From: Desulfurivibrio sp.
Lineage (GTDB): Bacteria > Desulfobacterota > Desulfobulbia > Desulfobulbales > Desulfurivibrionaceae
Direction of reading: 5' to 3'
DNA length: 47,073 bases
Assembly (NCBI GenBank): GCA_013791995.1
Contig: VMSS01000125.1
Location: 1 to 47,073 of the forward strand
Position 1 is the stretch's first letter. Each line of letters opens with the position of its first letter. The notes under the pieces are model-generated. The model was not told the origin of the DNA and made no database searches. It saw nothing but the letters and a program-made list of their open reading frames with translations. Of this stretch, positions 42,885-46,875 are shown piece after piece. A program made the position numbers and the translations under genes.

Positions 42885-43307
42885 ATGCACGAAACAGACC
42901 GGCTCGGGCTCCTTGCGGAGCTTCCCAACGAATGCTGTGAATTAAACCATGGTCCCGGAACCCTTCGGAAAGACTTCCCTGCAACGGATTACCTTGTCAT
43001 GCCCTTTGGCTACCACGAAAATGATGTCATTGAGGTCTCGGTTCGCGAAATGGCTATTCCGGTTTGCCGGGAATGCACCACAGCCTTGTGCGGCACGGAG
43101 TGGACCCTTCTGTACTGTTTTGAGTGCTGCAGCTGCCAATGGGTAGCCAGGGCTTATGCCAAAAACCGGTATCGCCATCATATCCTCTGGCTGCGAGGCT
43201 GCCCGCATTGCGCGCAACAATTCGGCGGAGTGTATTTTAACGATTTATCAGCCCTGGTTGAATTGCCGGTCTTCCTGAGCCGCCAACCGGGGATCATGGC
43301 TGCCTGA
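42885..43307 (+). CDS. Cys-rich hypothetical protein (putative metal-binding)
   Basis: AAGGAGG RBS; CC, CREC, CFECCSC and CPHC motifs. Confidence 0.75.
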   Translation: MHETDRLGLLAELPNECCELNHGPGTLRKDFPATDYLVMPFGYHENDVIEVSVREMAIPVCRECTTALCGTEWTLLYCFECCSCQWVARAYAKNRYRHHILWLRGCPHCAQQFGGVYFNDLSALVELPVFLSRQPGIMAA

Positions 43308-43336: not shown

Positions 43337-44143
43337 TTAGCCATCCTTGTCCAAATAGGTCCGCGCCCCCACATAGCAGCCGTCAAAATAGCTGCTATGC
43401 AGCGAACTTTGCCGGATGGTGTCGCCCTTTTTGGGCGCATGGATGAAGCTGCCGTTTCCGGTGTAGATTCCCACATGGGACACTTCTGAATCTCCGTTGG
43501 TGGCGAAAAAAACCAGATCCCCCGGAGCGAGGTCTTCGCGGCGCACCGGAGTTCCCGCCTGGAACTGCGCCCTGGAGTTGCGTGGCAGATTGAGCCCGTT
43601 CAGCTTGTAGGTGGTCATGGTCAGCCCGCTGCAATCAAAACCAGTCTCCGCCGACTCTCCACCCCACTCATAGGGAATACCGATAAACCCCTCCGCAGTG
43701 TTCACCAGCATTTTCCGCAAGGGTCCACCCCGATAATGCCGGTACCGAGCCGCGGCAGAATCCTCCGGGGCAACCAGATAAAATGCGTCGATCACCCCAC
43801 CTTTTCGTAACTGCACGGCCCGGGCTTGTGCTTCTTTCCGCGAAGGGTAATCTCCGAACCGAACCTTGTACAAACCGCTGGCATGACGATAATAATAGGC
43901 GTCAAGCCCCAGGGCATCAAGTTTCTGCATGAGTCGGACCGCATTGTCCAATTTGGCAAAGGCCCCGACCTGGATGGTATGTCCCAGCATGGCCAGTTTT
44001 TTTTCCGATGCCGCCCGAGGCAGACCAGCGCCTCCCTGCTGGATTCCACCGCAGCCGGGAAGAATCCCCAGGATAACCACAATCAGAATCCATCGGGCTT
44101 GGGGAAAAAACTGCGCCGAAAATCCTTGGGCTGTCATGTTCAC
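43337..44143 (-). CDS. SPOR + NlpC/P60 lipoprotein peptidoglycan endopeptidase
   Basis: Lipobox LPGC, SPOR motifs IQVGAF...LYKVRFG, then FDCSG, HVGIY and FIHAP. Confidence 0.92.
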   Translation of the reverse strand: MNMTAQGFSAQFFPQARWILIVVILGILPGCGGIQQGGAGLPRAASEKKLAMLGHTIQVGAFAKLDNAVRLMQKLDALGLDAYYYRHASGLYKVRFGDYPSRKEAQARAVQLRKGGVIDAFYLVAPEDSAAARYRHYRGGPLRKMLVNTAEGFIGIPYEWGGESAETGFDCSGLTMTTYKLNGLNLPRNSRAQFQAGTPVRREDLAPGDLVFFATNGDSEVSHVGIYTGNGSFIHAPKKGDTIRQSSLHSSYFDGCYVGARTYLDKDG

Positions 44144-45147
44144 GATTTCACCTTCTCTTCTACCCTGCCGTAATCAGCCAACGCGGCGGCAAGTTCTTTT
44201 TGCACCAAACAGACCAGCTCCTTTGGCGCAAGAGCCTTTGCCCCACTCCCCCAGGAAAGTATCCAGCGCTCGACCTCATAGAGATGCCGGGCCGGAAACC
44301 CGAGCACCACGCTCCCATCTTTTTCGCGGACCGTGGTCTGTTTGGGATGCCACTCCCGCTCCAAAACATACGGAGCATGCTTGCCGGAAAACCAGACCTT
44401 CACCACAATCTCGCGCTCTCCGCTGAAGATTCCGAACTGCGACCCGGCATACTGCGCATGGTCAAAGTCAACGGGTACGGTAAACTTTTTTTCAAGAAGC
44501 AGGGCCGTTTCGATTCGAGACATGGCAAAGGTTACAATCGCGTTGCGCCGATGGCAATGACCAATGAGGTACCACTCCCCCTGATACCGCACCAGATGGC
44601 AAGGGTCAACCCGACGCTCAGTACTCTCCCGGGCGCCGGGTTTTCGGTAGGAAATAACCACCGTCTGATTCTTGCTTAACCCGGCCGACACAGCTTCCCA
44701 TATCTCCGGTTCCAGTCTGGTTTGCCGCTCGGGGATGACCGACAGTTTGTCTTCCACCCATTCCGGATGGATGGAGACTTTCTCGGGCAGGGAATCCTCA
44801 ATTTTCCGGAACACCTTTTGAAGCTTGCGGTATATGGGCGTGTCTTCATGCATCTGCAAGGCTTTTTCCGCAATGCAGATGGCAAACAGATCGCTCTCAT
44901 TCAGGGAAATGGCGGGCAGTGCGTAATTTTCTTCGGTGTAATAATAGCCACGATTCTTGGCATCGTAGGCAATGGGCGCATCACGCTGGTTCCGCAGATA
45001 ATCGATATCCCGCAGGATACTCTTGGCGCTCACCTCATATTCGGCACCCATGGAACTGCAGTTCGCCAAGATTCCGCTGCGCATCCCCTCGCGGATCTTT
45101 CGGTCTATGAAGAGCAGTCGTAAAAGCTGGGTTTTGTCTTTTGCCAT
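44140..45147 (-). CDS. HTH-WYL-WCX transcriptional regulator (DriD/PafBC-like)
   Basis: Winged HTH EVSAKSILRDIDYLR...RGYYY, WYL domain YQGEWYLIG...FAMSRI, WCX domain WILSWG...LAPKEL. Confidence 0.93.
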   Translation of the reverse strand: MAKDKTQLLRLLFIDRKIREGMRSGILANCSSMGAEYEVSAKSILRDIDYLRNQRDAPIAYDAKNRGYYYTEENYALPAISLNESDLFAICIAEKALQMHEDTPIYRKLQKVFRKIEDSLPEKVSIHPEWVEDKLSVIPERQTRLEPEIWEAVSAGLSKNQTVVISYRKPGARESTERRVDPCHLVRYQGEWYLIGHCHRRNAIVTFAMSRIETALLLEKKFTVPVDFDHAQYAGSQFGIFSGEREIVVKVWFSGKHAPYVLEREWHPKQTTVREKDGSVVLGFPARHLYEVERWILSWGSGAKALAPKELVCLVQKELAAALADYGRVEEKVKS

Positions 45148-45170
45148 ATCTTTATTTAAAAAAAGTTTAG

Positions 45171-45195
45171 AGGTAGGACACCATTTGTCCTACCT
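45171..45195. promoter_or_regulatory. Perfect inverted repeat; putative WYL-regulator operator
   Basis: AGGTAGGACA-ccatt-TGTCCTACCT, located in the 108-bp divergent gap. Confidence 0.8.
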
Positions 45196-45199
45196 GCCA

Positions 45200-45208
45200 T
45201 GATAGGCT
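45200..45208 (+). promoter_or_regulatory. Extended -10 element for the 71-aa ORF
   Basis: TG-A-TAGGCT fits TGnTANNNT; the palindrome occupies the -35 region. Confidence 0.6.
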
Positions 45209-45255
45209 CACACCAGAAGAAAACACAAGACAGCTTTTTCATCTGGAGGAAAACA

Positions 45256-45471
45256 ATGTTTTATAAAGACCATGGATTCAAAAATGGGTTTCTCTCGGCG
45301 CTCAACCGGTGTGTTACAACTTCTTTCTTCACTGCTGCAGATAAGGCTGGGCAAGACACGAAAAATTCACCCGTCTTCGAAATGGTCGCCAGGGTGCCGA
45401 GAAATCCTGCCCAGGAAAAGTATCTCTCCATCCCGACCTTTATCCGGCAGGGCAAAACCTTGGGGTTGTAA
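45256..45471 (+). CDS. 71-aa protein with an FtsZ C-terminal-peptide-like motif (candidate division inhibitor)
   Basis: Strong GGAGG RBS and ATG at 45256; C-terminus EKYLSIPTFIRQGKTLGL. Confidence 0.7.
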   Translation: MFYKDHGFKNGFLSALNRCVTTSFFTAADKAGQDTKNSPVFEMVARVPRNPAQEKYLSIPTFIRQGKTLGL

Positions 45472-45755
45472 AAAGTCCAAAACCGCGGTTGTCGCAACGG
45501 CATCGACCAAATCGCGGCGGTGCTGTGCATACTCTCATGACAGGAACCGCAGCCGTTGCAATGAGAAGCAGGCACACCGTTTCATCCGATGCCGCGCTGT
45601 CACCTGATCTCCCGGCCAAATACCGACCTTTCCCCACCGCGCTTTACCGACTTTCCCCCATATATTTGGCAAGCGCGCTCGGGTATAGTGTCACAGGACC
45701 GGCATCATCCACTCAGAGAGACGCTCCTTCCATGAAAAACAAAAGGAACCCCATC

Positions 45756-46103
45756 ATGGCCCATTGCCATCTCGCAAAACAGTGCGCCTTTTTCGTTGTA
45801 CGGGAAGAGGGAAGAGAAATGCGTGAGTACTTTACAGGACTCTATTGCTGCGGAAACTTCAGGGATTGCGCGCGCTACAGGGCAGCGCTGGATGTGGGAC
45901 AGGAAATGGTGCCAGACGACATGTTCCCGAACGAAGATGATTTTCTCAGCCTTTTCGCCTGGCCAGGAAACCGGCAAAAAACCCAGGTCAACAAGCGCTC
46001 CCGCACTGGCTATCCTGACAGGCAGCACGTTTCTCCGTCAGAAAAGAGTGCAGCAGCTTCCGGCCATCTTCCTCCAACCCGTCAAACTCGCAGCCGACGC
46101 TGA
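45756..46103 (+). CDS. Small Cys-motif hypothetical protein
   Basis: AAGGA RBS; CHLAKQCAFF...YCCGNFRDCARY...VPDDMFP pattern. Its tail overlaps the convergent PilZ gene. Confidence 0.65.
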   Translation: MAHCHLAKQCAFFVVREEGREMREYFTGLYCCGNFRDCARYRAALDVGQEMVPDDMFPNEDDFLSLFAWPGNRQKTQVNKRSRTGYPDRQHVSPSEKSAAASGHLPPTRQTRSRR

Positions 46104-46401
46104 TATTGCCTACCATCGGCAGATCCAGCACCCAGCGCACCGTAACCAAAAGGGTCTTGTCGCACAAAACATCCCCCCCTTTGCTGAGGCGAACAAGAAC
46201 AAGCTGCCGCCCAAGCTCCAGGGAATTCCAATCATCCCTTTTCAGGGTGAAATGCACTCCGCCCATGCTCAGATCCAGCACCAGAGCGGAAAAAGAAAAC
46301 TGCCCGAAATCAGGAAAAACGAAGACCCCGTAGATATTCTCTTCAGGCGAAAAATATACCCGCGCTTCTTTTCTTTTCTCGTGAAAATCGCCAGCCATCA
46401 T
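45988..46401 (-). CDS. PilZ-domain c-di-GMP receptor
   Basis: RKEAR (RxxxR) and DLSMGG (DxSxxG); GGGGAG RBS. Confidence 0.85.
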   Translation of the reverse strand: MMAGDFHEKRKEARVYFSPEENIYGVFVFPDFGQFSFSALVLDLSMGGVHFTLKRDDWNSLELGRQLVLVRLSKGGDVLCDKTLLVTVRWVLDLPMVGNISVGCEFDGLEEDGRKLLHSFLTEKRAACQDSQCGSAC

Positions 46402-46608
46402 CTCTCCCCTGGTTTTCCGAGGTAGGAACCACAGCCAAATCCAACCCATGGTTGCCAAATCATCCAATCTGCTCTTTTTTTTATATCTGGGGTTGTTTAT
46501 TTTGGCAAGCCCTACCTGTCATCCCTTAGTCTTAGGAATTGACAAATACCCCGCCCACGGCTATCAGTTAACAACAATCAGCCTGCAAACAACGAAGAGG
46601 AACTCCCC

Positions 46609-46875
46609 ATGCCCATCACCATTGAAACGCTCTCTCCCAAAAAACGCGAAGCCCTGCGCCTCGACGAATGGCCGATCTGGCAATGTGAGCCCTCGACCTT
46701 CCCCTGGCATTACGACGAGGAAGAATCCTGCTATATTCTGGAAGGTGAGATCACCGTTACCACCACGGACCAGACCGTGCAGATCTCCCCCGGCGATTAC
46801 GTGACCTTTCCCAAGGGTATGGATTGTCAGTGGCAGGTGCACAGCGCGGTTCGCAAGCATTACCTGTTCCGCTAA
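46609..46875 (+). CDS. Cupin, DUF861/EutQ-like
   Basis: WPIWQCEPSTFPWHY.EEE.CYILEG...GDYVTFPKG...VRKHY. Confidence 0.88.
   Translation: MPITIETLSPKKREALRLDEWPIWQCEPSTFPWHYDEEESCYILEGEITVTTTDQTVQISPGDYVTFPKGMDCQWQVHSAVRKHYLFR

Follow-up and report, generated by a model that had tools for sequence, protein, structure and literature searches.

Small inhibitors of cell division that are switched on by WYL-domain regulators are already known, namely DidA and AciT (PMC4211646, PMC13010146; a review on the topic is PMC7617703). In Caulobacter crescentus the WYL-WCX protein DriD is described as binding a palindrome (CGAC-N7-GTCG; PMC12392091) that lies over the -35 position, at a fixed distance from the -10 box, of promoters without a -35 element, and from its single site in the bidirectional gap beside driD it activates the gene on the far side (PMC4211646, PMC9186387, PMC13004042); the effector, DidA, is reported to be a 71-amino acid (aa) membrane protein that binds the SPOR domain of FtsN and leaves the Z ring undisturbed (PMC4211646). 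In the LexA-less Acinetobacter/Moraxellaceae lineage the WYL activator DdaA, with operator CGWCA-N5-TGWCG, is reported to control recA, uvrA and ssb and to join the division inhibitor AciT with CRISPR and restriction genes in one regulon (PMC12392091, PMC13010146), and in Mycobacterium smegmatis the local WYL activator SiwR acts likewise on adjacent genes from a palindrome between itself and its targets, upstream of the -10 (PMC10693628). Here we describe a locus in the window (the whole 47,073-nucleotide stretch analysed, contig C78 of a 95%-complete, 2.96 Mb Desulfurivibrio sp. genome) in which a WYL-WCX regulator gene, a palindromic predicted operator and a divergent gene for a 71-aa protein with an FtsZ-like C-terminal tail stand together, and we put at about one in two the chance that this WYL-switched small protein is a decoy that occupies FtsA and so pauses division.

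The regulator (44,140–45,147, minus strand; 335 aa) matches the Pfam families WYL (PF13280, E = 4e-20) and WCX (PF25583, E = 6e-15) above cut-off, and its closest named relatives are mostly from Desulfurivibrionaceae and other Desulfobulbales. An earlier note on this DNA, made from its letters alone, had called the gene HTH-WYL-WCX; the last two domains stand, but the N-terminus has no Pfam HTH match (the PADLOC WYL model spans residues 30–311), and we infer a winged helix-turn-helix there from a helix with an invariant R46-D47 pair (R46 in 67 of 67 loci, D47 in 66). The 108-nt gap between this gene and the small gene contains, as that note said, a perfect palindrome (45,171–45,195), whose 10-bp arms (45,171–45,180 and 45,186–45,195) flank a 5-nt spacer and whose core is GGACA-N5-TGTCC (45,176–45,190); an arm of 10 was reached by 5 of 5000 base shuffles of the gap. 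Beyond the palindrome lies a predicted extended -10, TG-n-TAGGCT (here TG-A-TAGGCT; 45,200–45,208, plus strand), the T, A and T of whose hexamer keep a constant distance of 17 nt from the right half-site; it is followed by a Shine-Dalgarno GGAGG (45,245–45,249, plus strand) and the 71-aa open reading frame (ORF) that the note had reported, with its ATG at 45,256 and its stop ending at 45,471 (plus strand).

The palindrome is the predicted operator of the small gene. Among 40 true sites, which were picked by the palindrome and a downstream tail with the -10 unused (one spurious 41st row was excluded), the T, A and T of the -10 occupy fixed positions in 40, 40 and 39, the operator is centred near -32 of the predicted promoter, and there is no -35 consensus. 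A sigma-70 promoter scan did not list this promoter, as expected because the -35 is absent. The operator stays with the small gene even where WYL no longer adjoins it, at a distance of 2.7 kb or not nearby at all (L115, L116, L121). In one genome with WYL deleted (G017) the operator is degraded and the small ORF lost, and in another (G013) the operator is slightly altered and the ORF retained; two deletions (L245, on G013:C31, and L076) fuse the first WYL codons toward the neighbouring peptidase gene and are natural WYL knockouts. Several features match the DriD activator layout, in line with the DriD-like logic that the earlier note had proposed: the half-sites are similar, a single site serves a bidirectional gap with the 71-aa effector on the far side, and the palindrome covers the place of the missing -35 at constant spacing to the -10; the spacing of the half-sites is that of DdaA. 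This likeness to DriD, DdaA and SiwR promoters makes it likely that the WYL protein activates the small gene from this operator.

The arrangement was followed through 61 related genomes, which are not independent of one another. With a best E below 1e-75 taken to define a WYL ortholog, a tail ORF is found in 41 of the 44 genomes that have one (counting two variant tails recognised by eye, G039 and G059, and G014, in which the local copy is deleted and the pair is present on two other contigs) versus 2 of the 17 that do not; the two exceptions of the tally are 85%-complete genomes with WYL deleted. Among the best 30 WYL loci, 20 of which belong to one genus, a divergent ORF with an [IV]P[TAS][FYW][ILMV]R tail is present in 26 and one with a variant tail in a 27th, and the palindrome is present in 28. 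The synteny that the earlier note had asked about is therefore found, ORF and palindrome both being conserved beside WYL orthologs across many families. A cultured relative, Hydrosulfovibrio ferrireducens CB1MN (L047), likewise carries WYL, operator and tail ORF.

The small protein, searched in its correct frame, matches no Pfam family, and two protein searches returned 108 and 39 relatives, nearly all of 57–113 aa. It ends in ...EKYLSIPTFIRQGKTLGL and has a variable linker before a tail motif, E54-K-Y-L-S-I-P-T-F-I-R-Q-G66 (45,415–45,453, plus strand). Across 73 distinct versions of this motif, L, P, T and R never vary and Y, F/Y, I and G hardly ever do, and among 17 sequences of the genus the ratio of nonsynonymous to synonymous polymorphism (pN/pS) is 0.06 in the tail, 0.38 in the N-terminal helix and 0.67 in the linker; thus only the tail is strictly conserved. 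Synonymous changes occur in every motif column of those 17 sequences, which, together with stops in the other frames, rules out an RNA structure or another reading frame as the cause of the conserved stretch, and we take the small ORF to be a real gene. An amphipathic N-terminal segment (residues 8–20; 45,277–45,315, plus strand) carries an F..GF.A motif in 45 of 67 relatives and could possibly serve oligomerisation or membrane contact. No transmembrane helix was found in the protein (best 19-residue hydropathy 0.66, versus 2.2–2.4 in the small protein of a sister clade), and its Atlas model has a pLDDT of 0.41. Helical long forms of about 100 aa with the same tail lie away from WYL genes in other genomes (L117:2980-3291, L118:769-1077, L119:2839-3144, L120:1605-1910); these four have no Pfam or fold match, and the Atlas holds similar unnamed clusters. 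The fold of a 100-aa long-form relative is a helical bundle with a low-confidence tail, with no match in PDB or BFVD at E<=0.001, and a long-form profile gave 2 weak matches among 301 across the phylum.

The tail resembles FtsZ C-terminal peptides specifically, as judged by several sequence comparisons. The E. coli FtsZ tail is DYLDIPAFLRKQAD, in which I374 and L378 are reported to be critical for ZipA, FtsA and MinC (PMC4117426); the matching stretch of the small protein is EKYLSIPTFIRQGK, and it retains the equivalents of both residues (I59 and I63). The FtsZ core is present as I59, P60, F62, I63 and R64, and these positions hold I/V, P, F/Y, I/L and R, respectively, in all 73 distinct motifs. 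Placement is also FtsZ-like, R64 being followed by 7 residues to the C-terminus after a variable, unstructured linker. A matrix built from 49 Desulfobulbales FtsZ tails ranks the small ORF second of 18,662 ORF ends, behind only FtsZ, and the reciprocal matrix, built from small-protein tails, ranks FtsZ second; in whole-ORF scans each comes third (the long repeat proteins P0116 and P0129 had been removed as chance matches before ranking). Among PDB entries the family profile matches the FtsZ tail of B. subtilis best (E = 0.089), and in 300 genomes of the phylum the profile finds one true relative and 18 other sites, all 18 of them FtsZ C-termini and one, LSIPTFIRR (L282), nearly identical to the motif. 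The FtsZ likeness claimed in the earlier note is thus borne out. Second FtsZ paralogs occur in two relatives (L266, on G044:C45, and L267, on G050:C34), and that of G044 ends in PAFLRRGKSLPTTVP.

The operator reaches beyond the small gene in relatives. A pattern that combines operator and -10 has 75 matches in 43 of the 61 genomes versus 1 for the reversed pattern; 42 are training-type sites, and 15 of the 33 new ones precede defence genes (7 Cas3/Cas1, 2 BREX, and 6 methylase, nuclease, Hma or PDC). The others precede BRO-N genes (2), an acidic 71-aa family (5), a DNA ligase, RlaP, RhuM-Fic and a transposase (one each), or an unclear target (7). These defence genes lie away from the WYL locus, where the neighbours are the small ORF and a peptidase gene, and in the Desulfurivibrio genome itself one operator site alone exceeds the reversed-genome control. 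The acidic 71-aa family (L152:1584-1796 and 7 relatives) stands directly behind the operator in several families and was not found in this genome; its model is confident, and Foldseek finds no PDB match. G430 has five identical copies of the operator-promoter, each on a different contig, and a mobile element may carry them. The regulator thus appears to be DdaA-like in that its regulon combines a small effector and immune genes; it differs from DdaA, which controls recA, uvrA and ssb, in that no operator lies at recA or umuDC here, so it does not look like a global repair regulator. The same two observations, operators mostly at defence genes in relatives and none at recA or umuDC in this genome, make phage or foreign DNA as plausible a trigger as DNA damage. 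The premise of LexA independence in the earlier note is supported, as a search of this genome found no LexA DNA-binding domain; 36 members of its family yielded only 3 weak partial matches, but in several other families LexA and the module occur together.

The closest solved relatives of the WYL protein are PafBC and DriD, and the likeness to DriD is weak (E = 2e-9). Among the ssDNA-binding residues of DriD, in a phmmer alignment judged by eye, the equivalents of Y168, R178 and Y192 are kept (Y167, R178 and Y193) and that of R176 is T; across loci the R204 equivalent is R in 30 of 67 and the R207 equivalent is A in 60 of 67, and DdaA likewise has one of its WYL arginines replaced by alanine (PMC12392091). 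The tail-partnered WYL proteins all fall in one clade (SH-aLRT 98) of a quick, midpoint-rooted tree of 51 chosen proteins, from which DriD and DdaA were left out and whose careful search was unfinished. Neighbouring WYL clades have the same operator with either an ARPP-1 gene or a 70-aa one-helix membrane protein. In the sister clade (L202:1575-1781, L203, L204, L205) the same operator accompanies a 66–78-aa protein with one N-terminal membrane helix, a candidate DidA-like inhibitor; an ARPP-1-like gene takes the divergent position in another clade (L124, L248, L252, L258, L260, L262, L263; Pfam PF20208 was confirmed for L124 only). The gene immediately upstream of WYL in L025, on the same strand, is umuD-like, and the tail ORF and operator are on another contig.

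The sequence of events that we favor begins with the operator, -10 box and small gene, which are conserved together with one WYL clade. By analogy with DriD, SiwR and DdaA, the WYL domain would sense single-stranded nucleic acid produced by damage or brought in by foreign DNA, and a WYL dimer would bind the operator over the missing -35 and activate the small gene. The strictly conserved, FtsZ-like tail of the product would then compete with FtsZ for subdomain 2B of FtsA; with FtsA occupied, FtsZ would be detached from the membrane and division paused. ZipA, MinC, SepF and SulA were not found in the 95%-complete genome (ZapD and SlmA were outside the search), which leaves FtsA and ClpX, both present (on contigs C179, L035:217-1428, and C143, respectively), as tail binders. 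FtsA is the only known tail-binding membrane anchor found in this genome, and it retains the EPR motif of the subdomain 2B region. Free C-terminal fragments of E. coli FtsZ are reported to inhibit growth, with binding to FtsA subdomain 2B predicted by modelling (PMC11831152); unlike the small protein, these fragments are artificial and have no natural regulated gene.

A number of observations weigh against a decoy of this kind. The tail of the host FtsZ reads DYDRPTFLRR (DYDRPTFLRRNES), and in a by-eye comparison the tail of the small protein does not track variation in host FtsZ tails. The acidic D373 position of E. coli is S58 here and, among 67 relatives, A in 37, D in 12, E in 9 and another residue in 9. 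Two elements fixed throughout the family, Y56 and G66-K, are atypical of local FtsZ tails, which may indicate another partner. A lone tail peptide is reported to bind FtsA weakly (~50 uM; PMC4117426), so that avidity or high levels would be needed; the amphipathic N-terminal helix may supply avidity. One genus member (L002) is without the ORF though WYL and operator are retained, the equivalents of DriD R204 and R207 are V205 and A208, LexA coexists with the module in five relatives (G044, G045, G048, G049, G050), and to these must be added the lack of an operator at recA or umuDC and the presence of ClpX as a further tail binder.

ClpX offers the best of the alternatives, an unlikely one in our judgment: the tail could be aimed at ClpX(P), as a decoy substrate or adaptor that shifts the turnover of FtsZ or other substrates, or as a degron that shortens the life of the small protein. 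ClpX is a known FtsZ-tail binder (PMC4117426), the extra fixed G-K/R-x-hydrophobic end could fit another pocket, and the same tail occurs on unrelated scaffolds. However, the residues that are kept are those critical for FtsA binding, and a pure degron would need a separate effector, yet in 22 of 67 relatives there is no conservation outside the tail. Barely less probable is a convergent likeness, in which the motif binds a protein outside division, for example a defence enzyme or the small protein's own WYL regulator. The Y and G that are fixed outside the FtsZ core, the failure of the motif to track host FtsZ tails and the wealth of defence genes in the regulon would all fit such a partner, but every one of the profile's 18 matches outside the family is an FtsZ tail, that of L282 almost letter for letter, and the FtsZ paralog L266 ends in PAFLRRGKSL, like the motif with its following glycine and lysine.

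The 15 of 33 extra operator sites that lead into anti-phage genes allow a different use of the same mimicry, a protective decoy that soaks up phage or host inhibitors attacking FtsZ via its tail while division continues. We consider this improbable, as no such tail-binding inhibitor (MinC, SulA) was found in the genome and the free tail fragments tested in E. coli inhibit growth (PMC11831152). The bias of the targets toward defence genes could also mean that the WYL protein works as a repressor in the manner of CapW/BrxR, holding down its own gene, the small gene and defence islands until nucleic acid is sensed; immune WYL regulators are reported to be mostly repressors (PMC13010146), and the operator is 24–48 nt from the WYL start. 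The fixed -10 without a -35 fits activation instead, the closest solved relatives are PafBC and DriD, the operator degrades once WYL is lost, and regulators of the CapW/BrxR type adjoin their defence operon, whereas the WYL gene here adjoins the small ORF and a peptidase gene; repression is thus rather more improbable still.

That peptidase gene (43,337–44,143, minus strand; NLPC_P60, E = 6e-30, and SPOR, E = 1e-15, by Pfam) encodes a SPOR-NlpC/P60 protein with a predicted lipoprotein signal, and, as the earlier note described, it overlaps the WYL stop codon: the two genes share 4 nt, from its own GTG start to the WYL TGA, and an ATG follows 2 nt after the stop. That this septal hydrolase belongs to the checkpoint itself, as the note suggested, is very improbable. 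Although the overlap and translational coupling hold across the genus and the gene is present in 25 of the best 30 WYL loci, it occurs in only 33 of the 61 genomes, escaped the search with this query in 12 genomes with WYL and the tail ORF (G029, G031, G033, G035, G039, G044, G045, G048, G049, G050, G059, G060), lies on another contig in 4, persists after WYL deletion (G013, G017) and faces away from the predicted activated promoter. We judge it a local neighbor outside the module. Farther out, the flanks contain a Cys-rich 140-aa ORF without a Pfam match (42,885–43,307, plus strand) and, within 45,732–46,103 (plus), 45,988–46,467 (minus) and 46,609–46,875 (plus), a 123-aa Cys-rich ORF without a Pfam match, a PilZ-domain gene and a cupin gene.

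The decoy reading sets the small protein apart from the inhibitors described so far. The transmembrane helix of DidA- and SidA-type inhibitors is absent from it, and the FtsZ-like tail would take the place of FtsN binding; the reports on AciT mention no tail mimicry, and the SiwR targets are DinB-family enzymes with no division effector among them (PMC10693628). DdrR of Acinetobacter baumannii and other small inhibitors encoded divergently from lexA are, like it, divergent from their own regulator, and are damage-induced, but a self-cleaving repressor is in control there and the abstract mentions no FtsZ-tail motif (PMC13689564). No natural FtsZ-tail decoy and no mention of this WYL clade were found in a literature search in which subscription papers were thinly covered, most matches were judged by their listing and supplements were excluded; the clade may appear in the supplementary WYL trees of PMC12392091.

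Similar tails are also seen in phages. Viral contigs L212–L244 encode phage proteins on unrelated scaffolds that carry [DE]xLDIP[AT]F[LIF]R; 29 of the 33 matches are in frame, and 14 of these lie <=13 residues from the stop, all as raw counts without a background control. A scan of viral sequences for the exact family motif gave 0 matches. One phage protein with an N-terminal transmembrane helix (L200:3737-4045), encoded among small phage genes, ends in VPTFIRQGKELGI, the same extended motif. It is possible that such proteins mimic the FtsZ tail.

If the small protein is indeed a decoy for FtsA, division arrest probably forms part of a joint damage and defence response, since the same operator heads CRISPR, BREX and restriction loci in relatives. 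A wider view is offered only tentatively: in Desulfobulbales one LexA-independent WYL regulon would switch on these loci and, to bring about arrest, the FtsZ-tail decoy. This view includes the ideas that the decoy may out-compete the native tail on FtsA, having kept the phylum-common L[DS]IPTF[IL]R while the host FtsZ has DRPTFLR, and that tail mimicry may be a general and so far undescribed trick, because many phage proteins end in the same motif. Of the damage-induced inhibitors named in the accounts consulted, SulA blocks the polymerisation of FtsZ, whereas SidA, DidA and YneA block late septal proteins, and none of these four is described as copying the FtsZ docking tail. A regulated natural tail decoy would therefore be a new way of stopping division and would explain how LexA-less sulfur bacteria halt it, and the WYL operator defined here predicts which defence islands are co-regulated with it.

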